Positions 8,436-48,668 of a stretch of DNA of 64,000 nt are shown one piece after another. Location: the NCBI GenBank assembly GCA_002633005.1, contig NMRA01000286.1, positions 360,503 through 424,502 on the forward strand. The letters run 5' to 3'. The notes under the pieces are model-generated. The model was not told the DNA's origin. It saw nothing but the letters and a program-made list of their open reading frames with translations, and ran no database searches. Source of the DNA: Phoronis australis (Eukaryota > Animalia > Phoronida). Position 1 is the first letter of the stretch. Every line of letters begins with the position of its first letter. Position numbers and translations under genes: made by a program.

Positions 8436-8563
8436 CTCGTGGCTGCTGACAACAGCACGTCGGACAATGCGTCGTCCACGGGGGCAGAGTCGAACCAGGG
8501 TCAAGATATGCCACCCCAAGAGAGGGTGGGTGGTATAGGAGACAGTAGGCCGCCATCGTTCCA
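8436..8563 (+). CDS. dvl: Dvl exon immediately after the DIX domain (LVAADN...[15 protein letters not shown])
   Basis: Polypyrimidine tract + tgtag acceptor; CA|gtaagt donor; phase 0/2; conserved [11 protein letters not shown] motif. Confidence 0.95.
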
Positions 8564-11500
8564 GTAAGTCATGGCTGGGGTCCTGAGGTTCCGTACGAAC
8601 CAATGGTCTTAGAGAATTTTCACGTCACAGCAGAATCCTTGACCTGAGGTGTCTAGGGTTGACTATCTACTCTAGGCACTAGCATGGATGAGGAGCATTG
8701 CACAGGTTTAATTGCTTTTTTGGTGGTTTGAAAGCAGAGTGTGTCACCTGAATAAAATTGTTCACTGTACATTGGTTTCAAGTAGCATTGTTAAGGACAA
8801 AAATGTGCTACTCAGGACAGAGTATGAATAAACGCATTAGTTTTGTGCATTGGTGTAGTCAGTCCTGTATGCAGAAACATGATTATTTCTCGTGTTCTCC
8901 TTTAAAAAGTCCCTCGTTAATTTTATTAGTCTAAATATTCCATGTCGCTGTTATGATAAAGCCCCAAACCCAACGAATCTCCAAAGTTTAAACCCAACTT
9001 AGATTGAATATTCTCTGTTGTTCTTGAATACGAGTTAAAGATGAATGTTTTGGACCATTCACCGTTATGGCCATTTTCAGGATACAAACCGTATGCTTTA
9101 GAAGGAGGAGTGGGGGATTGTTGCCAATGTTGCTTTTAAGGTCTTAAAAATGGCGATGTCAAATTATAGAATTCAACGTTTTAATTACTTCTCACATCAT
9201 AAAACATGATTAAGGAACCAATAGCAATATGCCATTTGACTTTGAAGCACACGTGATATAAATACATAGACCTTGTAAAAATGTCACCATTCTTGACAAC
9301 TTTCAGGGTAAGGAGGTAGTGGGAAAAGTGTACAGTTTGTACGCTCGTGAAAATGGTGATAATTGTGAGCAGTCCCTTGTCATTTTGTGCTTGAGTACAT
9401 TACGATTTATGCAGATGATTACATAAAGCATGCTCGCACTTGTTGACCATAAAGGTGCAAATTTAAATTGGAAATGGAAATTTAGAGTCTGAACACAAGT
9501 TTGTAGACTGAATCTAGGGGTTGTCAAGTGCAAACTTTGATTATGTACTCATTTTGCATAAATCATGACATATATGAAGCCAAAGACACCTAAAGAAGAA
9601 CAGAACTTATCCAAAAAGTTGGGAGTTGGAGATAGAGATGAGAATTCAAGCACATAGGTCATTTGGTTGAACTCTGTGATATTTTTTTTGTTTGTAGGGT
9701 CTTTTGAAGTCAAAAACATTTGAGAATGTAAACTTTTATGTCAAGTTTGACAATTATTTTTGTGAAATGCTGTATTAACAATTATGTTGTTGCTGAAGTG
9801 AGAGCCGTGATATGTAGGTGGGTATCCTACTGTAAACAGACACTTGGTGATTTTTTTATTTAAAGGTCTGTCCATTTTGCCAGTCTCGTGAAAATTTTTT
9901 ACATAGTCATTTGGAATTATCAGTATGATTTCTGTTTTGTCATTATTTGGGCTTGGAAGCCCCAGGCAAAACATCAACACAATATAGAAAATCAAGAACA
10001 CGTGAAAATGTCTCGGGTCGTCTTACTACACTTAAGAGATGCTCTGACATTCAGTTAGCATTCTTTGTTTTTTTGTTTATGTGTTTAATTCGTCAGGTGT
10101 GTAGTGAATTGCCTTGGGAACTATCTGATGTGTTCTTGATAGGCATTGATGAGCTGTGCTAGTTTCCAAGAGGCCTTTACCATGTGGGAAAAATGCTCGT
10201 TGTCAGGGAAACCTATCAGTCGTAAAAAAGGGGTTATTGAGATTTTCTGTCTGGAGTGATCCTCCATGGTCAGTTAAAATTTTGAAATTTAATTTCCATG
10301 TTTTTCTTTTAGTTTTGTTTACAAACAGTAAACAAAGACTTGGCGACCAAAACAGGTCGTCAGGGGTAAAAAACGTCCTCTCTGAAGTGCGATTTACAGG
10401 GGAAGAGCTGGGGGCTCTGGCAAAGATCAAAGAAATTGCAGTATTCATGGTTCTCTGTGGGCCGAAATCCAAATATAATGCATCTTGTTTTTGTGTCCTA
10501 GTCTTCCTTTCTGTTGATACCCAGAAACAACTTAAATTTATCATTATCTCATTCGGTGATTTGCAACGAGCCTTGTCTGGGTATATTGCAAGACATTCGT
10601 TGTTAGACTGGAAGTTTGTTGAAAGAATATATATGAACTCAATTACCCCTACATCGTAGACGTTATGAGTTTATATATCTGAGTTTTTTGTGTTTCGATT
10701 CCTCGTAGCGAATATGGTTGTCAAGAAGTTGTGATCTCATTCTAGAGTTAACATCAAATTTCACTGTGCTATGTTTTAGCGCCAATGCTGGAAAAGAGTA
10801 TGACAATCTGGAAAATGACTCGGTAGGCGAGTCGTGCACAGACACAGAATCGTTGCTAAGCAACAGACGAGCACCAGGTATGTAAGTGACTGTTGTAAAC
10901 AGTTTTGTATTGCAAAAAAGCAAATTTGACATGACTTGTGCATAATATGTTATGTTGTGGTGTGGCATTGTTTGTCTGAGCTTGCTTGACACATTGCTGA
11001 ATAGGAAGATGGTGGTTCTATGGTATGGGTAAATGAATGATGTTTGTTTGATATATTATGTCTGACAGTGGGTGCTGCTTCCTGTTGGTTTGTGTTGTGA
11101 CCAATAGATGGCAGTTGAGGTCTCATTCATCTGTGCCTTGTGAACAAAGCAAGATGGACTAACGTGACCTAGTTCATCATAGCTGTTGATAACTAATTCT
11201 GTTTCTGATAACATCTGTTTTTATTGTTTAATTTTTGGCTGTAAACCTCTCAAATCTTGATGCTTTTTACAAATTTTTACATGCGATACCATTTATTTTC
11301 TTAATTATTTTAATGAAAATATTTTTAAATCGTGATTTTATTTTGTGGTTTTGCTCCTTGTGGCATTTTCTTTGTTCAGAATTCTGTCTATAAATTATTC
11401 TGTAGTAAACCCTTTTATCAAAAAAGATAGATGGTAAATGTAAAAGGTTTAGCTTCTGACTTGTTGATTCATAATAGTAACAGAAATATTGACCCCACTA

Positions 11501-17500: not shown

Positions 17501-20500
17501 GTGCTCGGCTTTTGTTTTGTCTGGTAGTTGTACAAAGATTACACTTCTTGTAAGAGTACAAACTGTTATCTATGTACTGTGCTGATCTGGTGCTTAGTCA
17601 AGATGGTATTTTGTGTTCTTTTGAGAATACCTGTACTCTGTATTGAACACGATATGTTATCTCTTTTTCTATGTGACAAAAAAGGTTCTGGATGTCATTG
17701 TGTTTGACACATTTAAAAATGATGTGGAAACTCATTGCATTTGTGAATAAACAATGTTTGTGTAACATAGTCAATGACTCTGGTCCTTGGTGGAATTGTT
17801 GCTCTAATTCTCAGCCTGACAAACTTGGCATGTTGGTTTAAGAAACAAATGTAAGCCATTGTGAAAAATTTCTCTTCCGAAATGATGACTGAAAAGTTAT
17901 CCGAGACTGTCTGTTTGCTCAACAAACTTTTTGATTTCATCCAGTCTCCACACTCAGTGCTCGACATTGGCTATGATCAGTTCAATACCAAACTGCTCTT
18001 GTTTGGCCGGACCAATATAAACATCTTACCTGTCCATTACTCTCGCCTTTTGGATGTTGTTTGCCAGTGACTGTATGTCATAGTAGGAATGTGTTGCAGT
18101 GAATGATAGTGTGTGCAGTCCTACCGTAGTTCTTGAAGTGAATGTGATGTTTCGTAAAACTGCTACAAGATTAGGTAAGGGTGTCTAGAACTGGATTTTT
18201 GATAATTGGGTGATGTGATGTGTGTCTTGGTGTGAATCAATGTTTTACTTCATGTGTGTTGGCCAATGGCATTGTTATTAGCCTTTGAGAAATTGACAAA
18301 TTATATTTTCGACAATGATACAGTGAAATCTCATCAGCTTAGGAGACAATATGGCAGCCAAGTAAAATTTATGTTCTTAATTTTTCGATGAAAGATAATG
18401 TGGCATCATCTTACTGCTTTTCCATGTTCAACTTCTGGACCATAGCCATCACTGCACAAAATTTTGAAAAACTGAAATGTTTGCAATTATGTTAAGAGTC
18501 GTTAAAGAAACTGAAAAAGGCAATTTTTGCAATTATTTATATTCGAAATGGATGAGATTTTACCATATGGATAAGAAATTAGTGAGGAATTTAAATTTAA
18601 TGCAAAATTCCATCAGTTTTATTTTCAGTCACAACTGTGTGACTGTTGTGGAATGGTTAATATGCTTCTAACGATGCATAGACCTAGGATCAAGGAAAAG
18701 TGTACGTTCATGCAATTGTTGTATTTTTGTATTTTGATTTTAACGTTGTCTTTGTTGGGTTATTTGTGTTTTCATCCTTTAATATCTTGCCTTATTTTTC
18801 ACAAAGGTGTTTTTAAATTCAGCTTTTGCTTTGAAACATTTTTGTTTGTACAATTATGTTTTGCAAGCATGTAACAACCTCATCTTGGTGTAAAGACTTC
18901 TACGCTTTACCTGGGAGGTGGGGATGTAGCTAGAGATTGTTCGACTGGTACACGCTGACCTGTCAAAGACAGCTTTTCTTGTCTTCATGTGCACCTCTGG
19001 GGGAACTAGACATTCAGCAAAGGTTTATGCGCAGAAATGCAGGTCATTTGCTCTCAAAAACGCCTCCATACTGGTGACAGCTTTCTCATCTTAGCCTGTG
19101 TAGGTGGACCTTTTTTAGAGGGCACTTTGCTGAAACCATGGTTGAATTGAACCATGCTGTGTCTAGTAGAATTCTGTTTACCTACATGCCAAGTGTCACA
19201 ACTAACACCAGAGGGAGTTGTTGCTTGGCTGGCTGTGCTTTGCATGTGGTCATTGGTTTGCTTTCTTTTCATTTCCGCTCAGATCGTAACCTTGGCTCAC
19301 CACGGGGCAATCATAACCATGGGTACAAGGACAACCGCTACCACTACGACAGGCATCACGGTAAGGGCGCTTGGGTATTCTTAGCAGTTCTTGGAGGTGT
19401 TGTGAGAGGCTGGTGCTAACACAATTTTTTCGCATTAACTTTGACTGTATCTATTGCTTAACATTGTCTGTTTCCATAGCAAATGTACGCTTTCCAGAAT
19501 GTATGACCATAGACGTTAAAAATTGACTTATAAGGATACAGTTACTGGTGTGAAGACGTGACTATGAGCCACACGGCGTTTTACCACCGTTTTTTTGGCT
19601 GGGGTTCTAATTTTCTCAAAAATCTTAACAAAGTTGATTGATGACGATTATCATATGCAAGTTGTACTGGTACCGTAGTATTTGTAACTGGTCTAGTGGC
19701 CCCATTGGGCCAAACTAAAAAGCAACATCGGTTTTGGTCTGTGTTTTTGAAAACTGTGTTGGTGATTGGTGCATTAAACTTTTTAGTCCGTATTTCTAAA
19801 AAAAGTCACCTGTTGCCAGTTGAAATGATATATATCTTTTTTTCCGGCGTCACCTGATGTTAGTTGTGAGGTGCAGGTTTCAAAATGAATGGCTGCAGCA
19901 GACCAGAGTGAATTGCAGTGAAATCTCACCACATTCTAAATTCTAACTATTAAATTAATTGCCAGATTGTTTTTTCTTCATGTTTCAAGGTCTTCTAACA
20001 TTGTCATGAATGACCACAATTTCTCAGAATTATTGTCTGTTGGTAGCTATGGTACACATCTTTAAAAATGACAGAGCGTTCATTTGGTGCTACTTATCTT
20101 TTATGAAACTGAAAAAATAAAATTCAGCCATATTGTGTCCTAACTTTACGTTTTTTTTCTGGTCTTAGATTAGATTATATTATATTAGTTTACTTTTTGA
20201 GACATGTTTATTTCGTCCTTAATGTAGTTTCATTCTTATTTTGATTTAATCCTCATTTTAACGTTTCGTTCATATTTTGTTTTGATGCTCAATGTGAAAT
20301 TTCATCCGATATTTTCCCCATGGTTATCGGTGTTTATCATGTGCAAGGTGTATCATCTGGATGCTATGTTGATATCATGTGAAACTCACTGGATGTAAAC
20401 TTTCTGTTGCAGATACCAATGTGTTTTTCAATGTTTTTGTACTATTTGGTGCTGATATGCATTTTTGTCTGGATTGTGCTTGTGTGGTTGATTTGATCGA

Positions 20501-23500: not shown

Positions 23501-26500
23501 AAGATTTTTTACTCATCGCTTGGAAAATCTTGTCATTTCTAACCTTACTTACCCTAGCGCATGGGCCTTTGTGTAGCTTTTCAAAAAATTGAAGTTGATG
23601 CTAGTGGGACTTTTTAGTTGTTGGGTACAGGTCGCTAAATCAGTTGCGGTACACACCAGAATCAGTTGCACTTTTGGCCAGTTCTGTGATAAATTTTGAA
23701 GACTGGTCTGTCCACGTTTAGTCTTACAAAGTAAAATTGTAGGAGCGAATGCATTGGGCGGTTATCCATCCCCATTGTAATTCTGACAAAAAGTTCACAT
23801 TAATTTGTATTTGTAAGTCAATATTTTTAGTATGATTTGCATTCATCAATCTGAACAAATGATTAGTTAATGAAAGAGTCAGGTGTATCTACCGTCTCCA
23901 AACATTCAGAGTCACACTCGCAATTGTTTTCCAGGCTCCAAATTTTATGTGTTGCTCTTGTGATCAAAGTTGAGACATTTTTGACTGCAGAAGCCATAAA
24001 ATGGGCACATGTTCTTGAAAATCAGGGCTACATAAATCACAAGGTTTTATTGAAAACTGTGAGCCGTAACTTATGACTTCCCCACATAAGTTGTTTCTAT
24101 GATTTTATGGCAAACTTTTCCAGTGTGTGGCAGCCTTATTGTAAATTCCCTCTGGAAGCAGCAGTGGGCCTTGTTCATGTTATGTAAGGACATCTCTTTG
24201 ATGTCCAACTCTGTTGGGACAGCCTGCTTGATTGATTGTCGCTGATGGACATGACTTTTTGGTATGGACTTATGACTTTCAAATTTCCTCGCTGTTTGAT
24301 CGAAACATTGTTTTATTAGTGCTGTCTTCCCCTTCCGTGAACACCAGCATCTTAAGCCTTAGTTACCTATCCATGAAAGGTGACAGGTGAAAATATTGGC
24401 GATTCTTTATGTATGTGGGGAATTCCACTGGTAAAAGTGTGATGGCTGTAGTAGCTTAGTTTGTTAATTTCTCCTGTTCTGGTGTCTCACAGTCATGGCT
24501 TACAACCAAGAATGCAAGCTAAGTATCAAATTTTGTTTTTAAACATTTGTCACTTACATGTTGTGTTTGCTGAAGTTTTTCATGGGATCAAGTGTATGTA
24601 ATCACTTGTCGTTGATGGTGGTCTCTGGCCAGTAGTTTCCAATGTCTGCTTCACTGTGGAAAGTGTATGGCTCAGGTGTTACTAGAGAGACCACTATTTT
24701 GGAGGTTGTGTTACCTCCCATTTCCTTGTGCACTAAAACCTTCCAGTAATTTGTGTTTTGTTTATTTGTCTGACTGGGCCTGCTGTTGGTATCCTGTAAT
24801 CTGGGCACATCTGGCTTTATTCCACAAGTAAGTGGCTTGCCTCCAGCTCCCTCTGTCTTCTAGATGTATCTCCACAGGACCTCCAACTCTGATCCAGACC
24901 TCCCTCATTGGGACCGCCTTGATTGTTCACTGTGCCCTGAGAATGAAAACCATGGCATTATACGAGATGTTGCCCATTTTGCTGGTGCGTGTCACCTTCA
25001 CTAGGACTATTATTTCACATTACAGGTTTGAGAGGTTCTGGTCAGTAGAAGAACAATTGGAAGTGAGGATTTAGGACTGTCAATACTACGGTGGATAAAC
25101 TCTCTCCATTCTCTCTCTCGAGTGTGTGTGTGTGTGTTTCTAGTCAGCACAATTCTAAGGCTTCTTACTGCATCAGTTGTCAGTGGTGTATCCATGTCAC
25201 TGAAATTGAGCGTGGGCTGTTGCTGAGGTCTAAAATTTGTAGCTTCGAGTTGACATGTTAGATCACAGCATAATGTTTTTGGGTTGTTGATATTAGGAGG
25301 ATGCGGATACCAGCAGTAGGCGCACTGTCATTGATTATTTATTACTCAAATGTATTATTGACTTGGTATAAATAACAGGATTACCAGGGCCAAAGGGGAT
25401 TAGGAGCAGAGAGTTGGTCATGGAAACAGGAAGTAATGCAAGTCATGTGACAGGTCGTGACCTGATGACACTGGTGTCAAAGAGCTTGCATGTCATGTAA
25501 TGTCTTGAGAGGTGTCAATATTCTAAAGGGAAGACTGCAGAGGACATTTGATACTTATATTGTGGTGTTACAAGAGAAATGAGTCGATTAATCTCCATGT
25601 GCTAAACAAGTGAGACAGTGAAGGGGCAGTGTCACTCTTGCTATTGAAAGATGTTTGAAGAGTTTCATGCGCAATATTTCCGATAAGTTTGCAATTGTTG
25701 TTCCAACTGAGTATCAGGATGCCGAGTCCAACGAACATCGTGATGAAATACACCAAGAAACAGCCTGATGGTCTGAGTTGCTTTGCGTTTCTCGACAAAC
25801 TTTTCTATCGTAAGAAGTGTTACCCAAGGAATGACCACTTTCTGCCTGGCCAATTCTACACAGATGCTTTCCAGCAATTTGACGTACTAAGTATGTATTC
25901 TCAGCATCAGTTTGAATGACTACCCAAGTATTTTTGGCTACATTTAGTCCTGACTTGTGTGCTTGCCAACAATTTATGAGAAATTTTGATTTTTATCAAT
26001 TTCTACGACACATCAAAGGCTCTATTATCTTGAGAAGGGTTCTGAAACTGTTCTATGTTTTCCAAAAAGAATTTACAACTGACCATACAAAACAACAATT
26101 GTAAAACAAAAGCACTTGCTCATTGTCCAACATTATGTTTTTAATAGTCATATTTGATGCAGAATGTTGTTGAATACTGACTTTTCAAGTATCTTTTGTT
26201 TTTAAAGGAACTATAACTTCCATGTTTTTAATGCTGTATAGTGTTGGCTAGTGTGGGATGGGATAGTTATATTTGCTATATTATTGCTTTGGTTCCATCA
26301 CAAAAGTGTGATAAGTGTGATGTTTTTGGATTTATGTATGGTGTTTGTTTGTGCTGAGTTGAGTGTTTGTCATTGATGAACCTTAGAAGTCTGTGTGGCC
26401 TTATGTTAAATAAATCTTGTTTTAAAAATAGCATTACATTGACTAAAGAGAAGTCTAACCATGAAACAATTTGTAGGTGTTCAACACAGAAATGTGTTCC

Positions 26501-29500
26501 CTGTCACCACCAGTTTTCCCCTTTTAAAATGTAATACACTTATGTTTATATCTTAAACACAGAACCACCCCTAAACAAATTATATCCCAGGGGAATGTTA
26601 GCTAAAGTATTCACTTTGTTTGTATTCTAAACACCATTTGTGTTGACTAACTTCTGAAAGTCTTTTGCTAATTTGTAACCCAAAATCTTTTTTGTCTAGA
26701 TCACCTGGAGGTTTCAGGCATGTGTAGACATCACTGGGGGTACTGTCCTGTCTGTGGTTTTCTGGTTAAGTTTATGTACGTCCTCAAGATGTGTTATTAC
26801 GTGGTGTAGAGAAATGTTGAAATAATGAAAGTAAATTTCCAGGTTCCTGGTGGTACAGCTGGTGTAAAGAAATTGATTTTCAGAGTTGAGCGTGGTTTAT
26901 GAAGTGCATATTGTCTTCTACCAACACTAAAGAATGTTTCCAAATTTCCAGAATGATTGTTATTACCAAGCGCATGCATTGGCTTGCCACTAACACAGTG
27001 AAGGATACAAGTCTCCCACGATTACTAAACCACACCTTCGTCTTTTACAGGCCCACATGCCAAACAAATCAATGGACACTCGATAAGACACGAGCGGCCA
27101 ACACGTGACCGCGGACATGGCTATGAGACGGCATCGTCGTTCATGTCGAGTGACATCGACTCCACGAGCTACTTCGACTCGGAGGACGATAATGCCAGCA
27201 GGTAGATAGCTTGCATTTGTTTCTACAGCCTGTGCTTTTGTGTTCTAGCGCCCCCTCACAGAGTGAACGGACACTCGTCCGGCCGTAGCGGCTTCACTAA
27301 CTCATCATCCGTGTACAGTAGTGACATCTGCTCAACAACGAGCTACTCAGATTCGGAGAATGATGCCGCGTCGAGGTTTGTTCGTTAGCAACTTATAATC
27401 GACTTATGCACTGTGAATACATTTTCACAATTTGCATCATTAATTTCCTTAATCACTTCATTTAGGATTTTTGCTTTTGTTATGTTGGAAATTTTTGTCA
27501 ACTTGGTCACACAAAATGTTCCAAAATGTTTATAATTTTGTGAGGGTTATCAAGTGTTTGAGAACGACCAGGCCTGCCCATTCAGTTGACGAGTTGTGAT
27601 GGGGGGATGCACTAAACACTGGCTACAAGTTCAACCAAGTACTCTGTGTATAACCTATGCTGACCTCAGTATGTGCAACTGCCACTCTGCACTGGGACAA
27701 GTGTTATTTTGCTACTCATGTGTAGTAAAGTGCTATTTTTTTGAAGAAGGGATACAATGTTTGCCTGAGGCCCAAATTATATGTCATTTGACACAACTGA
27801 GCTAAAGAAGAGGCGTGTTGTTCATAAGTTTGTTTCCGTGGATACAATTTTGATGAACTGCAAGAAATAAAACTAAAGGAATAAAAAACAATAAGCTCAT
27901 TTCGTGCTTGTTTTCCTGTATTTTCTGAAAGTACCGCCAGATTCGTCTCAGTTTTTCACGTGTGTCATTCTGTGCTAGTGCAATGATTTTTGGCCTGTTT
28001 TCACTGCCCTAAAGAAATTGAAACCCAAAAATTTTGTAAGGTGTGTCCAATGGAACGGAGTGATTGGAAATATAGGGCAAACACTGTAGGATGCACGTTT
28101 TTACTGTTTTGAACAAGGAACTTTGAACTCACACAAGCCTAAGTCAAGTGCAAATGGAGAACTCCAAATTAAATAAATCAATTTAGCTGTAGTGAATGTT
28201 CCCATCGAGTGAATTAACTCTATTCCATCTATGGTACTGTCATGTATAATTAGAACTGTTAACTGGCTGTCAAAAACAACAAAGACGATGGATCGCCACC
28301 CCAAAACATGAAGCTGAGTAATGGTTTTCAAAGGTGGCGCTGCGTGTTGCTGTTGTCCGTATAACGTGTGAATTGTCGTCGTACATGAGGTTTGCTAGCA
28401 CGGCTGTAAAGTTATTTTGAATAGAAATGTTTCTGTATCAAGCTGCAAGTATTCATGGAACTGTCTACTTAGGATCCCTAATTATCACAACTAATTAATA
28501 ATGACCTCATTTGTCGATGACTGAAATTTGTTCTGGTGGAAGGACTACAGTTCTACACATTTTGTGTCGTTCTTTGACTAAAAGGATTACAACTTGCATT
28601 TTCGTTTAATGGTGCTCTGCATTTGTGTTGATTCAATTATCTTGCAGTAACCACCGTAATTCAATTATTGGCCATCTTTGGAGTAGTTTTGCAAAAATCC
28701 CCTCCGGCTAGATTTCGCTAATGAATTTTTATGGTAAAACGTCTCACTGAGGCTTCCTGCAATGTCATTGACCCATCTGCACTTTGTCGTGCTTCTGTTT
28801 TGGTAGTCAGACCCAAGTTGTACAAGAAGCATGCTAGAAGCTGCTTTAATGATATTCTGGCCAATACTGAGATTGGGTCATTTACTGACTAGTTGAGATG
28901 CATTCTAAGCTTAATGCATGGGTTTATAGCTTTAATCATCCTTTAATGTCTTCATTATGATCAGTATGGCTATAATTCCTGTGTTTATGAGCCACTGGTT
29001 TACTCACACTGTGATGTTAAAAGACTTGCCCAATGTTTTATGCTAAATTTTGAAGCATTTTATCCTGTAGAACCAGGTGACATGTACCTGCCAACAGCCA
29101 ATACGTTGTATTTTAACCAACAAAGTCACCTCTTTTTCTGAGCTCTTGCGTTGGTTTTGTGGAAACGATTAACGGAATTAACATGAACAAATGGCGCGTC
29201 TGAATCCTTCCAGAGAAATGTTTGCCGTGGAGTATCTGGAAGAACTGGCCTGGTGTAAGATATTAATGGTTCTTGTTAACTTTCCAGTGGTTATGTTTTG
29301 TTATGTTACCACTAACTTTTTTATGAAAAGTGGACTGGCATACGTAGAGTGAGTGATAGGAGAAACCAGGCAGAAATAGTATCCATGGAGATTGTAATTT
29401 ATCCTGTGGTCAATTATATTATGTGACCATTAAGTGTTTACTAGTTTTAGTTGAGAAATAATTGATAGGTACTTTTTGTTGACCACTGCCTTCTTTTTCA

Positions 29501-32500
29501 AGTCTCTGACACCTGATTAATTTTAACTCAATGTTTTCTGCAAGATTGACACGTTTGGCTGACCCCAACAAATTATAGCTATTAATTTCCCAAGCTAGTT
29601 CAGTAAAGATTTATAATTTTTCTGGCATCTGGCAGAAAGATTGTTTCTTCACAATATGCATTATTGATTCTTTAGACCTGTGAAATTTACTGGCTGATGA
29701 CTTCATAAAATCATACTTTTCCCTTCTCCTTGATGAATGTGGGTGTTATAGTTACATGCAACCAACCTTCAGTCAAGTTATACCACTTACTAGTAAAAAA
29801 CTTACTCCAACTTTTTCTTGCTCAGATGGAGCTGAATTTCTTGGCTTGCGAAAAATTGACAGTTCTTATTGCAAATCTCAAACAAGAACTAACCGTCAAT
29901 TTTTCCCAAGCTCGGAAATCGCCCAAAATCTAAATAAAGAACAAGTTGGGGTTAACTTTATAAAGGTAAGTGGTCCAAGTCAAAAGATATTTTTGAGGAG
30001 AGGCAGATTTACGGCAGCTTTGATCGGCTTTCAAATGCTCTGCATTTGTTTACACTTGAGTGTCAGGTTCATGATCCTGCTCCTTGCTACTGCTGCTTTT
30101 TCAATAATCCTATTTGTTTAATTGGCTTAGAGTCATTGTGAAAATATACTAGCAGTCTTGACAAGCCTTGCCAACAGTTTTAATTACCCTACTCCTCTCA
30201 TTTTGGTCTGCAAGACTGGCCAGTGGTTTACATTGTTTCGTAGAATCAGCGGGCTGTTTACACCGGGTAGCTCGCTTGATTTATTTATTTTTTTCATGTA
30301 GCCATTGTTTATTTGATGTAAACCAGTACAAATTGATAAAAAATGAAGCATCACTAGGGCAGACTAGGTTTTAGGTATTTCTTGGTATAAAGGTTATTCA
30401 GTTTAAGTGCTCATCACACCACAAAGACATCCGTTGAATAGTTAATGACTTTGTGGTACAACTTTCTTCATTAAACACCCTCTCTTCTCATTGGTTCTTG
30501 TCTGTGCATTTGAAAATTGGCCTGGAGGACAGAAAATAAATGATTATCTCTAAACTCGAGGAAATATTTTTGTTGAAAAACCACCTCGGAATGGTCTTAA
30601 AAAATCATTTTTATGTTATGGTTGGTATATTGAGTTTATCAGCAGTTCTATGTTTAAGAAACGTTTTCAATAAGAATAAAATCCTTTTTAGTGAAATAAG
30701 AAACGTTTTCAATAAGAATAAAATCCTTTTTAGTGAAATGGTTTTTGATTGGTCAGTGGTAAACCAGTACAATTTGTGCTTACAGATTCTCTACGGAGAC
30801 AGGCACCACAAGTAGGTCATCCAAATATGGTCGGCACAGGCGGAGACGGCGGAGACATCGACTGCCCCCTATCAGCAGAGTGAGTAGTATTGAGGTCTTG
30901 TTGTTACACGGTTGCTATGGGAGTGACCGCTTGTTTAATACTACAAATGCAGCCTGAAATATGATGAAATCTCAATGAGTTTGCCGTCAGTGCTAAATGT
31001 ATGCTTTTTCGTGTTTAAGTTTTGTACCAAGTTCACTTCCCAGACAATTGAGAAAAATTGTGGGCATTCACGTCAGAAACCTATGAAAAATTTAAGAAGG
31101 GCAATTTTGGCAATTATTTGGTGAGATTTTATCACAGGTAAAACTTGTCACCCCTGGCCACTTTAATTCTAAATACAACAATGTCACTCCGCGATGCTGC
31201 CAAATATCAAGATGCAATGTATATGTAGGGCACTACAATGTTTATCATTCCTATACATGTAAATAAATTGAATGCGCATTCTAACACTAATAAAGTTTTA
31301 CTATTGCTATATCATTTGCATTGCTTACTCCTAGACATGATGCTTCTCCCGATTTATCACATAAGTGTGAAAACTAAGTTAATCAGATAACACGTTTTCT
31401 ACCTTTGCGAGATTGGAGTGTTGAATTCATTATGCTGTTGTTGACATTCACCCACGTGTTAAGGAGAAACGCATAAAAACGTGTGGACTTGTGTGAACAT
31501 TTTTTCGCGCAGGGTTTGGTGAATTTTATAACCTTTTCTCTTTCTCTATACTGGTGTAATCTTGTCCATTTATGGTTGGAAGTGCAGAGTTTGATTGGAT
31601 GAAAGTTGCTGAATGGGATGCCTGAAATGCGTGCTGCTTTCACTGTTTGGCGTTTCTTTCATTCGTTTGGAATTCAACATTTGATGTTATTGGTCGATTA
31701 AGAGTAGCTGTGGACATTGGGTTAAATGTGTCCAGGAGCTACGTTCAGAATATGAGGAATTCAGGTAGTTGTTACACCTGTTGCATGCTACCTGGTTAAT
31801 GACTGTATCAGAACCTGCAGCTTGTGCAGTTCTTTGATTATCCTCATTAGTCACTCCTGTCTGGGGTCACGACCTCCCACCCTATGGCTCCAGGGGGGTA
31901 ATTTGCAGTCTCTAGCAGTTTGCTTCAATAACCAGTTGAGAATCTACTTGAGGTAGACTAATGAGGTGTAAACGTCGTGCCACAAAGATTTTGTTTTCTT
32001 TCTTGACATCAGCTGTGGTTAAATTCTGGTGTTTTGGTTATATTGTGAAACAGAAATCTTATAGCTGCTATAAACTGATTTCTGGTGTTAAAACATTTTT
32101 CACAGGCGTCTTATCTCCTCTAAAGCAAAGTCAATGCGTTCTTGTCCTTCATTTTAATACAATAAGTCATCTGGAATTCCCCTGCCAGCCATAATGCATA
32201 AGCAAGTGAAACTAACCCACTGTCACAAGTAAGTTCATGGCCAATTTTGTAACAATAAATGGCTTAATACCAAGCTTAAGTTTCAACAGAAGGCGCGAGT
32301 CTATTGCCCCTTTAACTGACTCAAATTTTTGCAAGAATTCTGCCTAAAAGTTAAATAAAACCGCTTTATGGTGATGTGTTATATCACTTGTGTTTATTTC
32401 TGTATTCTGCATTCTGGTAAGACGCTTTGAGCGGTTGGCCATTGCATTACAGCTTAACATTTCTGTCGTGTGAGGGTAGTTGAATTTCATTTTTCGCTGG

Positions 32501-35500: not shown

Positions 35501-38500
35501 TGACCTGCTGTTGTTCAGCATGTCTGTCCTTGGTGGTGGTACTAAATACCTAATGTTTTGGTGAACAATAGGATTGTGATCTAGTTTCATAGTGATCAGT
35601 GTTTACCTGTGGTCGGGTTTCAACCATAGGCAGGGATCTTAGGTAGAAACATGCAGTGTCAATCTGGTGTTATCTGTTGAATAGATGGAAGATGTGAAGT
35701 TGATGGTTTCTAATGTCGCACAGTCTGTTCCAAGTATGTATTTGCTTTTGTGTTGTACCCTGACTGTCCAGTCTGTAGTCGGTGGTCACAGCCATGTGTT
35801 TTACTTGTCTTGTTTCCAACCATGTTGCCTTTGACTTGAACTAATGGTGTTCTACATTCTTAGTGAGATATGTCTGTGTGTGGGAGGGTTATGTGTATTT
35901 GGGGGGCCTATGTGTGTGTGTATGCATTTGTGTGACTGAATGATAACCATAAGAATTTCACCTTCTTCGAGCCTAGTTGGTGTTAAACAATTAATCTGCC
36001 GGGGTCTGGTGGCTTTACGCGTTACGCTGTATGTACCAACAATGGCTGGATACTGGTAAGGTCAAGGGCCATAGTTCAAGGAGTTCATGATAGTCTCTGG
36101 TATGTATTAATCCAGGATCGTTATTTTTTACAGGCCTCGTCGTTCAGTAGTATCACAGACTCGACCATGTCGCTCAACATTATCACAGTCACACTGAACA
36201 TGGGTAGGTGTCAGCAGTAATGCCCAGAGTTTTTTCAAAGTGTCTACTGTTGTTTAGGCAACCCTGTAATCTGTTGAGAGTGAAGGCAACTGCATCAGAC
36301 CCCATGCTCCAGTAAATTAATAGTTGTAATTTGGCCAACCCTGTAATCTGTTCTGGCTGGAGACAGTGGTGTGGTTGATATATGGCGTATAAACATAAAT
36401 AGCGCCATGATGACCACAATAAACACCTTCAATCATCTTAGTCTGCTAAAGACTGACTCTTTTTGATTTCATTTAGTTATGTGGTATGCAAGAAAACACA
36501 TTATTTAGTTTTGTGACAGAATGTAGTGTAATCTTAAGCAAACCTGTGTTTGGTGGAGAATGTTAAGTTGTGCATTGTGTGTTATTCCAGACAAGGTCAA
36601 CTTCCTTGGAATCAGCATAGTGGGGCAAAGCAATAAGGGCGGTGATGGTGGTATCTATGTGGGCTCTATAATGAAAGGGTAAGTAGACAGCACTGTGTCT
36701 TTTCAGCTGTACAAGTCGATATTCTACATAGATGTGGTGTGCTGTATGTGAAATCTTATGCACGTTATGAGGTCACAAGTTAAACCAACGAGTTGATGCT
36801 TTTTGAAATGAATTGTATATTTTACGATCTACTCACTAGATTGTTTCATTGGTGAGAGATGGTGCGTTGAATCTCAGTCGTTAGTTGTAGCTGAAGTAGT
36901 GTTTACTGTGAAGCCCACCAATGTTATGGTGCTTCTTACCTGTCAACATGTCTCTTGCACTGCCCCAATAAGACTGTGCTTCTTGCAATGTGCTGTGATC
37001 TCCCCTTTTTCAGTGGTGCTGTTGCCCAAGATGGTCGCATTGAGCCTGGCGACATGATACTGGAGGTGAATGGTGTCAGCTTTGAGAACATGAGTAACGA
37101 TGACGCAGTGCGTGCATTGAGGGAAGCTGTGCAAAAACCAGGGTAGGACAATTTAAGCTTTTGTTGACAGTTGGTTCAGTTTTACGGCCATATTCTGAAG
37201 TACTCAACTTAAATGGTACAACAAAGGATCCGTTAGCATCCTGAGTGTCTATCCTTGAAGACCCTGCATTGAGTCTTAATTTCCCAGTGTCTCATTGGTT
37301 GTTATGTCTTAGTGTAAGAATTATTAGTCCTTGTTTGGCAGCTTAACAGTTTGAGGATATAAAGTTCTTTGTTAATTTGCATAACTGTTACATGTTCTAC
37401 CAAAGGTGCACCCAAGATGTTGTTCCTTGGCCAGAGCCCTCAAGTTAGCGTCATGTTGACCTATTGACCTATTGACCTATTGATCTGATGATCTCTCATC
37501 TCTTCCAGGCCCATCACATTGGTCGTGGCAAAGTGCTGGGATCCCAACCCCAAGGGCTACTTCACAATTCCTCGGCAGGAGCCGGTGCGACCCATCGACC
37601 CGTCGGCATGGGTGGCGCATACAGCGGCGATGCGGGGTGACTACCCCCGCGGGCCGGGCTCAGTCAGCACGGTGACAACTAGCACAGACTTGACAAGCTC
37701 ACTTGGGGACCCTGAAAGTAAGTAACATGGTAAATTGTTGTGTTATTAAGCATGGATTTTGTTTTGTATATTTACATTAAATCATCTTCCCTTTAGAACG
37801 CAATATGGTGAAACTTTGATGTTCTACTGAGTCAAATTTCTCATCAAAACTAAATGCGACAAAAATGTTATTGCATTGTTTAGTACAGTTCGTATTGTGC
37901 AGCTGTTGTAATTGGCCATTTGTAACTTTTGAGCATTTTAAAGCTATATTGAGTGCTGCTTTAGCCAGTCCAAAATGGCTAATATCAAAGAAAGATGAAA
38001 TAATACTGAAGTAGTTTATTAAGTCAAACATGAGGCGTATGAGCTCCATTTCGACCACAGTATAACCACAGGAAACCAAAAGACTTGATAACTTGTCTTA
38101 TTGCAAAACTCGATTTTTTTGTGACCATGACAAAATTAAATGAAAACAATAAACCATGCCTTTGTATCATATAGTAACAACTGTATTACCAAAGCAGTGC
38201 ACGATATACCTTTAACAATGCAAAATTGGAAATTGACAATTTCATCTGCAGTTGTTCTTGTTAGAATACGAAGAACCTTAACTTCACTTTGTGTATAGCT
38301 TGGGACAAAGAATGCTAATGCTGCAGATTCTTGAACGTGCAGTCCTACAGAAGTTGATAAAATGGCAATTCTTGTTTAAAAGACATTAGAAATTTAACTC
38401 CTCGTCCAGGCAGTAGGCTTCAGCATTTAACCTTTTTTTCTGTTCACCTGACCATGTTAATCAACTCAAATTGGAATAACCATTGATTTGCATTACTTAT

Positions 38501-41500
38501 GCTTGCAGGGTTCGATGAGCTGAATCTCAGTATAGAGACTGACATGCTGAGTGTGGTGCGGGCCATGGCCCAGCCAGACTCAGGACTGGAGATACGAGAT
38601 AGGATGTGGTTAAAAATACGCATACCAAATGCATTTATAGGTAATGTTACAACGTGACCGGTTAATCTCCGTAGTTCTGTCTTGTATTTAAAAACCATGC
38701 GTTACTGCTTATTGTATGTATGACGCCACTGCACAAATGCATTTTTTATAACCCAGAAGTTGCAAAATATCCATTGTTATGTTTCAATTTGAACAAAAAT
38801 GTCTAATTTTTAGTATCGTGTTTTTGTTATGAAGGTGTCCTCAGCATGAGTTGGCAAACCACTTAAATATGTTCTTGATATTTGCCTATATTTTGGAGTT
38901 GTCTCCCTCGATAGTACGTCCCATAATTCATGCATAATGGTTTTCGAATTTTAAGAGTTGTATTGATGTTGATTACTTTTGTTGCCCGTTTTATTTGCAG
39001 TAACTGTACGCTGGAGTGTGGATTTTCATAACAAATGTTTTAAATTTTATTGACCGATTAATGCGTGTATGCATGCAAGCGCAAACGCTTGAAATTCCTG
39101 GGGCGGAAGTCTGATCTCAGTACCGGAAACTCGACTCAAAAAGTTACTTACAAATTTGTACTTGAATCATGGAGCATTATTTTAAGTTTAGTTGAGTGTG
39201 CATTCTGAAGTTAGACCCCAGTTCCTGCACCAGCTATCACTTGTACTGACCTTGACCCCACATGTTGTCTTTGTTGTTCTGCAGGTTCAGACTTAGTAGA
39301 CTGGTTACACACACACGTGGAGGGCTTCCTAGACAGGCGTGATGCCAGGAAGTATGCTTGTAATTTATTGAAGGCAGGATATATCAGACACACGGTCAAC
39401 AAAATAACATTCTCCGAGCAGTGCTACTACATCTTCGGAGACCTCTATGGAGGTAAGTTAGAGCTAAACCCTCATTCCTAGGAGTATGCCTAAGGCACCT
39501 GCAAACACGCAGGGTGGAAATGCGCAATTATGAGATAACTTTTAGAACTCGGCAAACAAACTTGAGGACGGGTAGGGATTGCTATTGCACATGTTGAATG
39601 TCATAATGGCCGACCTGTCAAAGTTTTATAAATATATGTTATACAACGTATGAGGGCGAAGCCCGAGTTCAAATACTTTTGCATATCACAAATCTCGATA
39701 TAATTACTGGTACAAACACATACGTTGTATAACATATCTATCCTATGCGCTCCACTGAGGATTCTTTGAAGAAGCGGGTTTTCAATGATTGCTCCTCTTC
39801 TTTTTTTGCCGTTTGTCATCTTTTATCAATGATGATCGCAAATCGCGTGACACGTATACGTGCATGCAATATTTTTATCAATGAATTTTTGCAGCCTGCA
39901 TGACAGGGCAGTTCAAGTTGTATTTTATAGCAGCTACAGGCTTTGGGCACATATTTGTTATTTTCAGTATTTTTGTCAGTGCTTGAGGTGAAATCTATTT
40001 CTAAGTTAAAGTTTGTATACATTTCTGGCGTTTTTCTCGACTTCGTTGAGCAATATCTGTGCAGGACACCCAGACGTTGTGGCTGATGCACATTCAGACG
40101 CTTTTTAAAAATGCTCCTTGCACACGGTTATCATTTTTAGGTACAGAAATTTATCATAAAATTGACAAAAACACAGTGTTTATAGTAGTTGCAGTTTTGC
40201 TTTTGGGCTCGACGTATTTTGATTGTTTTGAGAACGAATTTAAAAATTGACTCATATTTGACCATAGAGAACCTAATCTGGTTAGTACAATAGGTGACCA
40301 AAAGGAGGCATGCATTGGTAATGTTTATTGCTTTCCTAAACCCAAATATATTGTGGCAATTTTGAGGCTTTTTATAATTTGTGTTCTGTTCAGGTGCAAA
40401 ATTTCAGGGTATATTAAGAAAAATTGTCAACAATATTTTTATTTCTTTTTTTTGTTCAGTTTTGAAAATGCATATCATAGTATTGGCATGTGAAAATATT
40501 GTGCACGGAGCTGAACCCAAAGTGAGTCTATATAATAACAATCAGGTTTCTTCGGATTGTAGTGTATTGTGTGCACAGGAGGGAATTTTGGCGAGAAAGA
40601 AGGCATCCGTATTCAAGGCGCGTTGAATACGGAAAAGTAGTTCTTCCATATCAAACATCACAATACGACCCGTATTTCATGGCCTTATTATCATGCATAT
40701 TACATAGTCAGTAATATCTTCTTTAACGTACTCTGTGAACATGTATTTGAAGTGCCATTGCACATATTTCTTTTATGTGTATCTTATGCATAAATAAGAT
40801 AAATACCAAGTTGGCTACAACAGGTAGCAGTCTACAGCGGCTGCAATTTCACATGACTTCGTCAGCTTCTTTGATTTGTTTTTAACCTTGGGAAGAGTCA
40901 TGGACAATCTTTATCCTTTTCTGAGTCCTCACAAACACTTGATTTTTGATGACAGTTCACATCAATCCTGAAATAGGATATAATTTTATTCAAATGCATT
41001 AGATTTGTCATTTCTGATGAGAGAATTTGTACCGTGAAATAAAGCAGAATTTTTTAATTGGCTTTTTCTATTCATTCTGTCTCCTAGCTGGCGAGAATGC
41101 CAAGTTCGGCATCTACGGCCTACCTGACATGGGCGGGCTTAGCCTCAACGACATCGACAGTGTTTCAGAGGCGGATCAGGACACCCTGGCACCTCTTCCC
41201 CCACCCGCCTGGAACAACTACTACCAGTACCCACCGCAGTATGTGCCCCCACCCTTCAGCTACTCACAAGATGGTGGCAGCTGTCATAGTTATCCTCTTC
41301 CAGGAGGGAATGGCAGTGCAGGAAGTCAACACAGCGGATCAGGTAGGTGTTGGCTTGGAGACACTGTGGAGGTGGTGGGCAGTTGGTATATGACTGTGTG
41401 TTGATTGATGGGCTGTTTGTCACTGGTTGCCTAAGAACTAGGAAATGGTTTTTTTTTGCAAAAGTTTTGTCTTGCTTCAGTGAAGTTATTGGGGAAAACA

Positions 41501-42491
41501 AGAAAGATAGTTGGCAAAAAGCAGGGCTAAATATCCTTTGAATATCATGATAAAAAAATTGTCCAATTTTGGGGCAGTCTCTAAAATTTGGGAAACCAAA
41601 TTTCAAGGAGAAATTGAATTTCCTTGATTGTGAAGATTGGGACATGGGTGATTTTGGTATTTGTCATATTTCTGAAATATCGAACTCTGCGTTTTGTACA
41701 GAGTCTGAGAATAGACTTGGCAATTGATTAAATAGCCACCGATGCAACATAGTGTGTAGCATTGGCTGCAGTTGATAGACTTTGTCGATTCCATAGGTTC
41801 AAGTGGCTAAGGCATCTGATTAGTCTGTAAGCCTAAACTATCGTTAGACCAGAAGTCTGAGAACTAATCTTTATGATTCCTGGGTTGTTTTATACTTTCC
41901 TGCAAGTTGACTGTGACTGCTGACGGTGTCGAGGTTCTGATGATTCAGCCGGTTGTGGTTTGTAGGTGGCGGTAAGCTGTAGTGCTCCTCTGCCGGCAAT
42001 GCTGCTGATTGAGAAGCATCTTGGTGTGGCTGAGATTGAATGCAAACTCTGTGCCAGGCTCAAAATGTATATCACTAAGATGAGCTTCCTTCCTGCAAAC
42101 CATAGTTTCCCATTCTGGTTACTTCGAATTTTAAATGGAGACTGAAGGCTTGATTTTCTAGTCCTGAATGTATTTTTCATTTGTAGGGGATATTTGTGTT
42201 ATTATTCAATTCGCTTTTAACAAAACATCTTTTTCCCTGGCCTATGGAAAAACTTATGGTGTGATTGTCTTGGGTGTTGGAGATTGACAGTTCTCTTTAT
42301 TTGAATGCGGTTCGTGTAACATCCTCTGTTAAGCAAGGTAGCGAGGGTGTTGGTATACGAATTTTTCTCTCAAGTGTGACTTTTCTCCCAACTCTATGGT
42401 GAATGTCCGACTTCTTTTGGATCCTACCATCTTATTAAATATGACTGAACGACTGAACTGTAAGTTCACCTGTTCTTGTGTCAGGGTGTTA

Positions 42492-42534
<43 letters not shown>

Positions 42535-44070
42535 CTTGTTCTAATAACGGCGGACATATGTCACTGTTACTGCAGTCCCTCGGAAACTAATTTTTTCACC
42601 TCGGCATGATTTTTAGTGTTTGGAATTGTAGCATATCTTTCAGTGTTATTCAGTTGTCTTGGTTCACAGCATCCCACCCTAGTTAGCTGTGGTTACCCAT
42701 TGATTTAGTTATCCCATTTGCATGTTGGCACAAATCCCTCGTACCCTGAACACTCGAGCGCGTGCACTCAACTTCCTTTCTATTTCACGCCGTCGTCCCG
42801 TGCAGCCGCGAGCACATTCCCTGTGAACACATGTGTATGCCTAATGCGACATGTTCGCAACTTGCGCAAGTTGTGGGAGCAGAAGGAGAAAAAAGCAGCA
42901 ACGTCGTCGTCCCACTGCAAGACGGCCAATTCCAAAATGGCCGACGGTTTCTGCACCCCACCTCCCGCATGTCCTGACAAGCCTCTTGACCAACTGCACC
43001 CATCGTGTTCTTACCGCAGCTACCAGGAACAGTTGGAAGAGCTGGATGATGATGTCAAGGGTTGGTCCGACGTATTGTCACAATTCTGTTGTTTGCTGAG
43101 CTCCTTATGATTTGCCCACATTGCAAAAAGTCCTCACTTATGCGACTAACATTTTCCCTAGGTTTCATTTCTTTTGCTTCTTGTTGTTGGTTTCGCTAAT
43201 GTCCTTAGTTGATTCTGATATACTGTTTGTTGCTTTGGTATTTTTGTTTGAACTGTGGTTGTTTCTTAGTGCGTATGTTATAATTTTCAAGTGTTTTTGT
43301 GACATGACACATTTAATTTTGAGTTAAAGTACTGAGTGGAGGGATGGCTGTTATGTTGTTATTGGCTCTATGAGCTGTTGAAAATATGGTTACATCTGGA
43401 TGTCTAGTGAAATTAGTCATTACAATCAGAAAATTTCATACAGCTGTTTTGGTAATTCACTTAAAGGAGTGCGGAGTCTTCGTTTACAGGTTTTCATACA
43501 AAACGACAAAATCTCATTCATTTTGCTCATTTCTGTAGCATTATGGTAAAAATACTGACACAAGTTAATGGGGGGTTGTCCCAATGTCAGGCTTGATGAA
43601 AAACAGCAAAAATTCTGTGGAACATTTCTGAGTCAAGAGTGAATGCCAACTGAACAGTAATTGGCAGAAAATCTTATGACAATGACAAAAATGGTTTACT
43701 CAAACACTTAATGGGGTTTTGTCATTTTTTTTTAACTGCTGCAATGCATTTCCATTGATACTAGTGAAAGGGGTTGACCATTTTGTGTCTCTCCTTTACA
43801 GGCAGCAGTCACTCAGGCAGTGGAAAGATGAAGAAAGAGAAAAATAAGGAGAAATCGGGTGGAAGTAGTTCCGGCAGCGAGACAGATGCGCACAGTGTGG
43901 CCAGTGTACGCCGTGGTGCCGCCTCGGAGCGCAGCTTTGCGCCAAGTGAGCGAAGTCTACCCCCACCACCTGTAGAACTGCTCAACGTCAACCCAGAGCT
44001 CAGTGGCAGTCGGCAGTCCTTCCGTATGGCCATGGGAAATCCTTGTGAGTTTTTTGTCGACGTCATGTGA
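8436..44070 (+). CDS. dvl: Dishevelled (Dvl/dsh), 5'-partial multi-exon gene; DIX exons lie upstream of the window
   Basis: Hand-spliced exons 8436-8563, 10780-10877, 19283-19360, 27051-27201, 30786-30879, 36134-36203, 36591-36678, 37014-37142, 37509-37717, 38509-38640, 39285-39452, 41088-41342, 43802-44070. All are GT-AG, phases match, and the total is 1869 nt with no internal stop. Hallmark motifs: [45 protein letters not shown] (PDZ), [16 protein letters not shown] (DEP), [20 protein letters not shown]. Confidence 0.98.
10780..10877 (+). CDS. dvl: Dvl linker exon ([32 protein letters not shown])
   Basis: ttttag acceptor; CAG|gtatgt donor; phase 2/1 fits neighbours; TES-hydrophobic-S-x-RR pattern as in other Dvl proteins. 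Confidence 0.88.
14987..15083 (+). CDS. Candidate alternative first coding exon of Dvl ([32 protein letters not shown])
   Basis: caccATGG start context; 32 open codons + 1 nt; CAG|gtaaaa donor in phase 1, matching the downstream exons. No homology support. Confidence 0.35.
18336..18564 (-). repeat. Dispersed repeat family A, copy 3 (inverted)
   Basis: Reverse complement reads aaaatctcatc...ggctatggtccagaagttgaacat...gccatattgtctcctaa. Confidence 0.65.
19283..19360 (+). CDS. dvl: Dvl symmetric 78-nt His/Arg/Tyr-rich exon ([26 protein letters not shown])
   Basis: ctttcttttcatttccgctcag acceptor; ACG|gtaagg donor; phase 1/1; GC-rich island in an AT-rich intron; open in the Dvl frame. Confidence 0.8.
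19915..20146 (+). repeat. Dispersed repeat family A, copy 4
   Basis: gtgaaatctcacca...caaggtcttctaac...tggtagctatggtacac...cagccatattgtgtcctaa. Confidence 0.7.
20628..20656. repeat. Interrupted (GT)n microsatellite
   Basis: Read directly from the sequence. Confidence 0.9.
27051..27201 (+). CDS. dvl: Dvl Ser/acidic exon, variant A ([11 protein letters not shown]...[27 protein letters not shown])
   Basis: cttttacag acceptor; CAG|gtagat donor; phase 1/2; matches the conserved Dvl MSS(D/E)xxSTSxxDS(D/E) segment. Confidence 0.93.
27249..27375 (+). CDS. dvl: Dvl Ser/acidic exon, variant B; duplicated paralogue of variant A ([10 protein letters not shown]...[24 protein letters not shown])
   Basis: cttttgtgttctag acceptor; GAG|gtttgt donor; same 1/2 phases as variant A; open frame; clear peptide similarity to variant A. 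Confidence 0.8.
29782..29974. repeat. Imperfect foldback (MITE-like), about 190 nt
   Basis: Nested inverted arms: accacttac/gtaagtggt, actccaactt/aagttggggt, gcttgcgaaaaattgac/gtcaatttttcccaagc, agttctt/aagaact. Confidence 0.7.
30655..30738. repeat. Perfect 42-nt tandem duplication
   Basis: taagaaacgttttcaataagaataaaatcctttttagtgaaa x2. Confidence 0.95.
30786..30879 (+). CDS. dvl: Dvl basic-region exon ([31 protein letters not shown])
   Basis: cttacag acceptor; AGA|gtgagt donor; phase 2/0; poly-Arg basic region typical of Dvl. Confidence 0.95.
31025..31135 (-). repeat. Dispersed repeat family A, copy 5 (fragment, inverted)
   Basis: gagaaaaattgtgggcattca...ggcaattttggcaattatttggtgagatttt is the reverse complement of the family's 5' half. 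Confidence 0.55.
33719..33802 (+). CDS. Candidate alternative first coding exon of Dvl ([28 protein letters not shown])
   Basis: ATG preceded by an in-frame stop; 28 codons; TTA|gtaagt donor in phase 0, matching exon 36134; ends in LTDSTISL, which resembles ITDSTMSL of the next exon. Confidence 0.3.
36134..36203 (+). CDS. dvl: Dvl exon, start of PDZ ([23 protein letters not shown])
   Basis: Near-invariant Dvl peptide; tttacag acceptor; gtaggt donor; phase 0/1. Confidence 0.98.
36591..36678 (+). CDS. dvl: Dvl PDZ exon ([30 protein letters not shown])
   Basis: Conserved carboxylate-binding loop FLGISI; ttccag acceptor; gtaagt donor; phase 1/2. Confidence 0.98.
37014..37142 (+). CDS. dvl: Dvl PDZ exon ([43 protein letters not shown])
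   Basis: Conserved PDZ sequence; tttcag acceptor; gtagga donor; phase 2/2. Confidence 0.98.
37456..37483. repeat. (ttgaccta)x3.5 mini tandem repeat just upstream of the acceptor at 37508
   Basis: Read directly from the sequence. Confidence 0.85.
37509..37717 (+). CDS. dvl: Dvl PDZ end and proline-rich exon ([12 protein letters not shown]...[14 protein letters not shown]...)
   Basis: Conserved VAKCWDP and EPVRPIDP motifs; ttccag acceptor; gtaagt donor; phase 2/1. Confidence 0.97.
38040..38214 (+). repeat. Dispersed repeat family B, copy 1
   Basis: gagctccatt...ttttgtgaccat...aattaaatgaaaa...gtaaca.ctgtat...taccttta shared with 47309-47493. Confidence 0.55.
38509..38640 (+). CDS. dvl: Dvl DEP exon 1 (...[27 protein letters not shown])
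   Basis: Conserved DEP N-terminal part; ttgcag acceptor; gtaatg donor; phase 1/1. Confidence 0.98.
39285..39452 (+). CDS. dvl: Dvl DEP exon 2 (SDLVDWL...[19 protein letters not shown])
   Basis: Conserved DEP C-terminal part; ctgcag acceptor; gtaagt donor; phase 1/1. Confidence 0.98.
39634..39737. repeat. Perfect 19-bp inverted repeat enclosing a GGGC-GAA-GCCC mini-hairpin
   Basis: atatgttatacaacgtatg (39634-39652) / catacgttgtataacatat (39719-39737); 66-nt spacer. Confidence 0.85.
41088..41342 (+). CDS. dvl: Dvl post-DEP exon (LSLND...DQDTLAPLP...PPQY...GSAGSQHS)
   Basis: Conserved DQDTLAPLP and GSAGSQHS motifs; cctag acceptor; gtaggt donor; phase 1/1. Confidence 0.95.
42494..42533. repeat. 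(TG)20 microsatellite
   Basis: Read directly from the sequence. Confidence 0.97.
42806..43110 (+). CDS. Candidate alternative terminal exon of Dvl, 101 aa ending [10 protein letters not shown]
   Basis: Pyrimidine-rich tract + tgcag; phase-1 entry puts it in a 100-codon open frame; GC/CpG-rich like the true exons. Confidence 0.55.
43802..44070 (+). CDS. dvl: Dvl canonical terminal exon (...[22 protein letters not shown])
   Basis: tttacag acceptor in phase 1; canonical Dvl C-terminal PDZ-binding tail; TGA at 44068-44070. Confidence 0.98.
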
Positions 44071-48287: not shown

Positions 48288-48668
48288 CTACTTCCTTCTG
48301 GATACAGGGGTTCTGGCAGATGGACTGGGACCTGTGGAGGTACGTCCTCTGCTGAGCACGCTCCGCGCGGCTGGTGTCGATGTAACGCGACCAAGTCTGA
48401 TGGGTGAAGTGCTGCGTGTGGGTGACCGTCTGTGTGGTGAGATGCGAGACATGCCTGGCCCGGAATGGAAGTCAACAGTGTCATCCAGCTTCCTGGTCTC
48501 CGCCTCCAACAGGATGGGGTCAAGTGTGGGGTCACGGGCAATGTTGGACAGAGAGTTGTCCAGCACGCTACGGATGTCTTTGATCTCGTCGCCAGCACGT
48601 GCACTACGCGAGATGTACTGCTGGCGCTTGCGGATCTCCTGGTTCAATTGGTCCTTCAATGTGGAGTT
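48288..48668 (-). CDS. CROCC: Rootletin terminal exon (NSTLKDQLNQEI...PVSRRK*)
   Basis: gttctag acceptor; phase 0; 127 codons to TAG. Confidence 0.92.
   Translation of the reverse strand, partial: NSTLKDQLNQEIRKRQQYISRSARAGDEIKDIRSVLDNSLSNIARDPTLDPILLEAETRKLDDTVDFHSGPGMSRISPHRRSPTRSTSPIRLGRVTSTPAARSVLSRGRTSTGPSPSARTPVSRRK

Follow-up and report, generated by a model that had tools for sequence, protein, structure and literature searches.

The stretch of Phoronis australis DNA analysed here (64,000 nt of contig NMRA01000286.1; hereafter the window, numbered from its first letter) carries a Dishevelled (Dvl) gene on the plus strand. The gene model was built from TBLASTN matches to amphioxus Dvl and from AG/GT exon boundaries, and comprises 14 coding exons that run from position 8436 as far as the stop codon (44070), with exons A and B both counted and the minor exon X excluded. 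The Dishevelled-specific region, the PDZ domain, the DEP domain and the conserved C-terminus are present in that order, PDZ and DEP with support from Pfam. Query residues 1-77 gave no tblastn match in the window, and the DIX exons probably lie upstream of it. The Dvl of the window grouped with the annelids Owenia and Paralvinella and one further protein in a quick tree of 30 rows (SH-aLRT 97). The parts of the gene are as follows.

8436..8563, plus strand: Dvl coding exon directly after the DIX domain (tblastn, AG/GT)
10780..10877, plus strand: upstream exon E3, with a phase-1 donor from which joints lead to U, to A and to B
19283..19360, plus strand: cassette exon U, 78 nt, in frame, His/Arg/Asn-rich
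27051..27201, plus strand: exon A (151 nt, phase 1/2), encoding the acidic Ser/Thr linker in its conserved form (RNA joints, profile, Pfam)
27202..27248, plus strand: intervening intron, 47 nt, GT-AG
27249..27375, plus strand: exon B, 127 nt, phase 1/2, by sequence a divergent duplicate, poorer in acidic and basic residues and richer in Ser/Thr
29214..29254, plus strand: minor exon X, 41 nt, frameshifting (RNA joints and frame check)
30786..30879, plus strand: downstream exon D, common to A and B, with the basic region (RNA joints, Pfam)
36134..44070, plus strand: the last eight exons of Dvl, covering PDZ, DEP and the C-terminus, placed by homology and AG/GT boundaries and open to the stop codon

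The 12 other introns of the gene measure 335-8405 nt. Short interspersed repeat fragments are found in the Dvl introns at 13111-13149, 18339-18372, 18437-18564 and 19977-20124; these draw reads of other origin that have loose ends at either side. A perfect 42-nt tandem duplication (30655-30739) ends 47 nt before the acceptor of exon D. Convergent with Dvl, a multi-exon gene on the minus strand (~48290-63020) encodes a long coiled-coil protein, for which Pfam returned weak coiled-coil matches only and which, by resemblance, we take to be rootletin-like.

Two copies of one linker exon

A first-pass annotation of this DNA had described A and B as a tandemly duplicated exon pair; its coordinates, AG/GT ends, lengths, phases, 47-nt spacing and both peptides were re-read in the sequence and were all correct. 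Both lengths are of the form 3n+1 and differ by 24 nt. The two peptides aligned with a local BLOSUM62 score of 74, a value equalled in 0 of 5000 shuffles (mean 25.7, maximum 65), and global alignment of the DNA gave 82 identities in 154 columns. Pfam family PF02377 was matched by both exons over identical profile positions (70/71-112), with E-values of 4.8e-10 for A and 0.0027 for B, the latter falling under the curated cut-off. Judged by sequence, A and B are tandem copies of one ancestral linker exon of Dvl. A six-frame search found no third copy in the window (next best score 39-40).

That A and B are alleles, or belong to two Dvl genes merged by mis-assembly, is scarcely credible: about half of the bases differ between them, which is far above the allelic level, the spacer has a proper donor and a proper acceptor, and reads join both exons to the same E3 and the same D (see below).

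The annotation had also held that inclusion of both exons, or of neither, breaks the frame, and a frame check of all combinations bore this out. With A alone or B alone, with or without U, the frame is open through to the stop at 44070. A and B together, or neither, lead to an early stop, which in the A+B product falls inside B. When X is added to A and B the total length is in frame, yet the stop in B remains; if the 47-nt intron is retained, the length stays in frame but an in-frame TAG stands at the donor.

Splice junctions in RNA

Three stranded raw runs from one study (X2, X3 and X4; ~18-19% of each) and a contig set (X1) were searched over the region 10840-30839. A joint was reported only if at least three reads from two starts supported it in a run; a few A-B reads could therefore stay hidden. 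Read counts are given below in the order X2/X3/X4, at joint positions adjusted for a shift of the cuts.

Exon A was joined to D (27201>30786) by 6/6/8 reads and by a mismatch-free X1 contig, and exon B to D (27375>30786) by 8/5/6 reads. On the upstream side, E3 was joined to A (10877>27051; 1/4/2), to B (10877>27249; 3/1/4) and to U (10877>19283; 2/5/2, with an X1 contig), and U was joined to B (19360>27249; 3/2/0). Exon X was entered from B (27375>29214; 0/3/0) and left for D (29254>30786; 4/0/0). The first mate lay on the minus strand in all junction reads, as plus-strand RNA predicts. At the reporting threshold, the three runs gave neither a joint of A to B (27201>27249) nor a row in which the 47 nt were left out, and no joint that skips A and B together.

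Exon A accounted for 20 of the 39 reads into D (95% CI 0.35-0.68) and B for the other 19, the runs being alike (p=0.73). Since A takes about half of these reads and no A-to-B joint was reported, B is a major exon, used about as often as A, and the choice between them is either-or; the mutually exclusive use that had been proposed is almost certain. The annotation had named a lack of reads into 27249 or out of 27375 as evidence against the pair, and B was found joined on both sides. It had also proposed four junctions for counting: 19360>27249, 27201>30786 and 27375>30786 were reported, and 19360>27051 was not. The upstream partner in that proposal, 19283-19360, is itself a cassette, and the RNA joins 10877 straight to A and to B.

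No tissue bias in A/B use was seen among the three runs, for which counts are small and which come from one study of unspecified tissue. The counts are too small to support a coupling of B with U or with X, for which U>B and B>X were reported and U>A and A>X were not. The frameshifting joints of exon X, reported with 3 and 4 reads, mean that out-of-frame products are detectable in the same libraries; X itself may be a poison exon or may reflect splicing noise. It would stay in frame with a donor placed 2 nt earlier, which is not the joint reported.

Basis of the exclusion

The 47-nt intron has adenosines only at +3, +5, +7, +14, +24, +26 and +46, the last being that of the acceptor. The usable adenosine farthest from the A donor is therefore 26 nt away, i.e. 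an intronic branch point would lie no more than 26 nt from that donor. An internal AG (27227-27228) would shift the frame and no use of it was seen in the RNA; under the usual scanning rule for the choice of acceptor AG, this would place the branch point at +24 or +26. Between the coding frames of the neighbouring gene, all 15 gaps measure 88 nt or more (lower bounds).

The steric limit reported in human studies is a donor-to-branch-point distance of <50 nt (in the available parts of PMC5740500 and PMC7969005), and the mapped range in OGDH, as given in the latter, is 25-41 nt. Because every usable adenosine is within 26 nt of the A donor, a steric block is the probable main cause of the exclusion. 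The block put forward in the annotation fits the sequence, the branch point being a predicted one. U1 on the A donor and U2 on the branch point of B, at +24 or +26, would be unable to coexist. Use of the A donor would lead to the A>D joint, and use of the B acceptor from upstream would lead to skipping of A. The rare mRNA that includes both exons or skips both would be frameshifted and removed by nonsense-mediated decay.

Decay could also act alone, exclusivity then being only apparent: the 47-nt intron would be spliceable and the frameshifted A+B mRNA destroyed. The stop inside B would suit this reading, 60% of human clusters of mutually exclusive exons (MXEs) are frame-incompatible (PMC5740500, available text), and the median orthologous intron of Capitella is 57 nt (10.1101/2020.05.07.078311, available text), so that short introns are within reach of the spliceosome in some annelids, and the threshold found in mammals may not carry over. 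The introns of Platynereis and Owenia are of kilobase size, according to the part of PMC12257675 available. We nevertheless consider decay alone unlikely, given the short reach of the candidate branch adenosines and an intronic, pre-mRNA-like depth of ~1-2x, by which unprocessed RNA is visible in the libraries. The block is favoured over decay alone because the frameshifting joints B>X and X>D were reported from the same libraries and A>B was not.

Enforcement of the choice by RNA pairing of the docking site/selector type, or by a splicing repressor, is very improbable. The stretch 26103-26120 can pair with 27227-27244 (18 nt, 83% complementary) and would cover the pyrimidine tract of B, but this pairing is weak, six of the kind occur within 2.5 kb, and its size is what chance would give. 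The local fold of this one sequence is not significant (z=-0.41). The U2/U12-incompatibility class was also considered and rejected, as none of the donors (GTATGT, GTAAGG, GTAGAT, GTTTGT) is U12-type when set against the U12 donor consensus.

Sterically enforced exclusion is reportedly found in exons 2 and 3 of alpha-tropomyosin. Like A and B, human OGDH exons 4a and 4b are homologous and in tandem, and their donor lies less than ~50 nt from the branch point, as that of A is predicted to do; they differ in that the OGDH branch point is distant, mapped and set in a longer intron, whereas the A/B intron is 47 nt in total (PMC7969005, available text). Like other homologous MXE pairs (Hatje et al. 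2017, PMC5740500, available text), A and B agree in position, phase and reading frame, shift the frame when included jointly and arose by tandem exon duplication, for which lineage-specific gain is frequent. Unlike these, A and B encode an intrinsically disordered phosphorylated linker and have diverged very asymmetrically. The main text of that paper does not contain 'DVL'. A literature search that covered openly accessible papers, by title and abstract, turned up no account of mutually exclusive exons in Dvl, in line with what the annotation had stated; a supplement or an MXE database could list one.

A/B may not be the only swapped segment in Dvl: among the 23 amphioxus (Branchiostoma) proteins P0001-P0009 and P0301-P0314, the segment that directly follows the PDZ domain comes in two homologous versions (14 versus 9), both of them within the records of B. 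belcheri. To judge from these protein records, the post-PDZ segment is probably a separate mutually exclusive exon pair; unlike A/B it follows the PDZ domain instead of preceding it, and the A/B segment itself is present in one version in all 23 proteins. The amphioxus isoforms also have alternative C-terminal segments.

Divergence of exon B and the Dvl linker

A scan of metagenomes gave 11 Dvl loci, four of them with a best match to Paralvinella. In 10 the exon could be defined (121-148 nt, all 3n+1, same phases), and for this reason the linker exon is taken as ancestral. No second copy was found in any of the 11 loci, with the whole intron to the next exon covered in six (87-910 nt), and a separate protein search with exon B gave none of 11 candidates at E<=10, which is weak evidence. 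Two versions of the A/B segment were likewise found in none of 84 isoform proteins from 15 multi-isoform taxa, each taxon having one version. The pair does not appear to be a general invertebrate feature, and the analogy drawn to the three vertebrate paralogues went unsupported, B being a divergent copy. The A/B duplication looks lineage-restricted, as seen against a comparison set without close relatives.

A profile search of 276 proteins found the segment in 152, and twice in only one of them, P0011 (Trichuris suis). As a tandem exon pair this was rejected, since the record contains two whole Dvl units; P0010 (Penaeus vannamei, marked low quality) was rejected because several exons are repeated. 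Both are likely adjacent paralogues merged, or assembly artefacts. At the position of U, an optional segment was found among isoforms of Pecten, Haliotis, Liolophura, Owenia, Lingula and Bradybaena, and these sequences suggest an old, conserved alternative splicing event in lophotrochozoan Dvl.

Against a profile of 20 taxa A scored 65 bits and B 32 bits. In a tree of the exon peptides the branch of B was 1.75, that of A 0.34 and the median 0.22, with placement unsure; this tree was a quick one on 44 columns with one starred fork, from which L003, L009, L010 and two rows lacking the full segment were excluded, and it cannot date the duplication. B retains an ancestral-looking APP start, as in locus L004. 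Over 39 aligned codons A and B were identical at 24, 26 and 15 of positions 1, 2 and 3, respectively, with pS 0.68 and pN 0.37 (bootstrap interval of pS-pN 0.09-0.54 on these 39 codons). When B was simulated as neutral, the observed pattern without a stop arose in <=1.4% of 3000 runs at each of seven distances. The selection test compared two paralogues only, in a protein-guided alignment that inflates pN conservation. These comparisons indicate that A is the conserved copy and B a fast-evolving copy that is likely still constrained; after the duplication, the ancestral sequence would have been kept by A while B diverged. We hold the whole account (tandem copies, either-or use by way of the short gap, and two versions of the Dvl linker) to be quite probable.

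Of the 49 residues compared in A, 9 are acidic, 5 basic and 12 Ser/Thr; of the 41 in B the respective numbers are 4, 2 and 16. In B the conserved aromatic residue before the DS-acidic block is replaced and one residue is inserted in the SSDI-x-ST core. B keeps the CK2-type S-x-x-D at the position equivalent to S192, so the difference in phosphorylation between A and B may be modest. In the linker stretch as modelled, net charge hardly differs between the two, and any effect would consequently come through charge patterning and site context.

The annotation had placed the segment in the heavily phosphorylated part of Dvl, and it does correspond to the S188-S197 cluster of DVL3 and to the acidic block 210-215 of human DVL2. 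To that block align the 3' halves of A and B (DSDEED in DVL2, DSEDDN in A, DSENDA in B). The first disordered region of DVL2 (IDR1) spans residues 141-259 and includes the block; joint deletion of three charged blocks, 210-215 among them, abolished Dvl2 condensates (PMC9811998, available text), although that deletion removed 20 charged residues in three blocks and is far larger than the A/B difference. The DVL3 cluster is basally phosphorylated by an unidentified kinase, the phosphate being lost with CK1-epsilon (PMC6927192, available text). In the available parts of these two vertebrate papers (PMC9811998 and PMC6927192) this block varies by paralogue or by phosphorylation, and no exon swap is mentioned; nor does splicing figure in the accessible part of a review of this linker (PMC11592973).

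In the B protein, the linker between DIX and PDZ would carry less charge and more Ser/Thr, which could alter kinase input and charge-driven condensation. The chance that B differs functionally from A under selection seems to us a little under even. B may instead be a tolerated duplicate in a disordered region, which selection would only keep open and roughly Ser/acidic as half of the mRNAs use it, the two proteins being equivalent; this is a serious possibility, if short of an even one. The long branch of B (on a weak tree) and its low profile score agree with it, as do equal usage without bias over the three runs and the finding of a conserved B nowhere else, neither in the 11 loci nor in the protein search. 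A fully neutral B is however unlikely, identity at codon positions 1 and 2 being above that at position 3, and the change is directional: acidic residues fall from 9 to 4 and basic from 5 to 2, and Ser/Thr rise from 12 to 16. A tolerated duplicate is compatible with the splicing mechanism and contests the functional step only. As a further step from selected divergence of B, the block might have become a fixed two-state splice switch in one annelid lineage; A might act as an ancestral, condensate-prone hub and B as a less charged, Ser/Thr-rich hub with other kinase input, splicing together with U and X tuning Wnt/beta-catenin versus planar-polarity output or Dvl dose; we regard this extension as rather doubtful.

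The duplicated exons A and B are real and expressed, and Dvl transcripts use them in a mutually exclusive way. The splicing mechanism is already known in kind, and the seeming confinement of the pair to one lineage limits its general importance; the pair illustrates cleanly how exon copies from a disordered region can diverge asymmetrically once duplicated. Through the two exons Dvl likely has both an ordinary and a strongly altered version of the acidic phosphorylated linker. Wnt pathways share Dishevelled as their hub, and the swapped segment maps to a condensation-linked block and to a phospho-cluster for which kinase and function are open in human work (PMC6927192, available text). Natural, expressed variants that differ only in this block would offer a ready-made test of its role.
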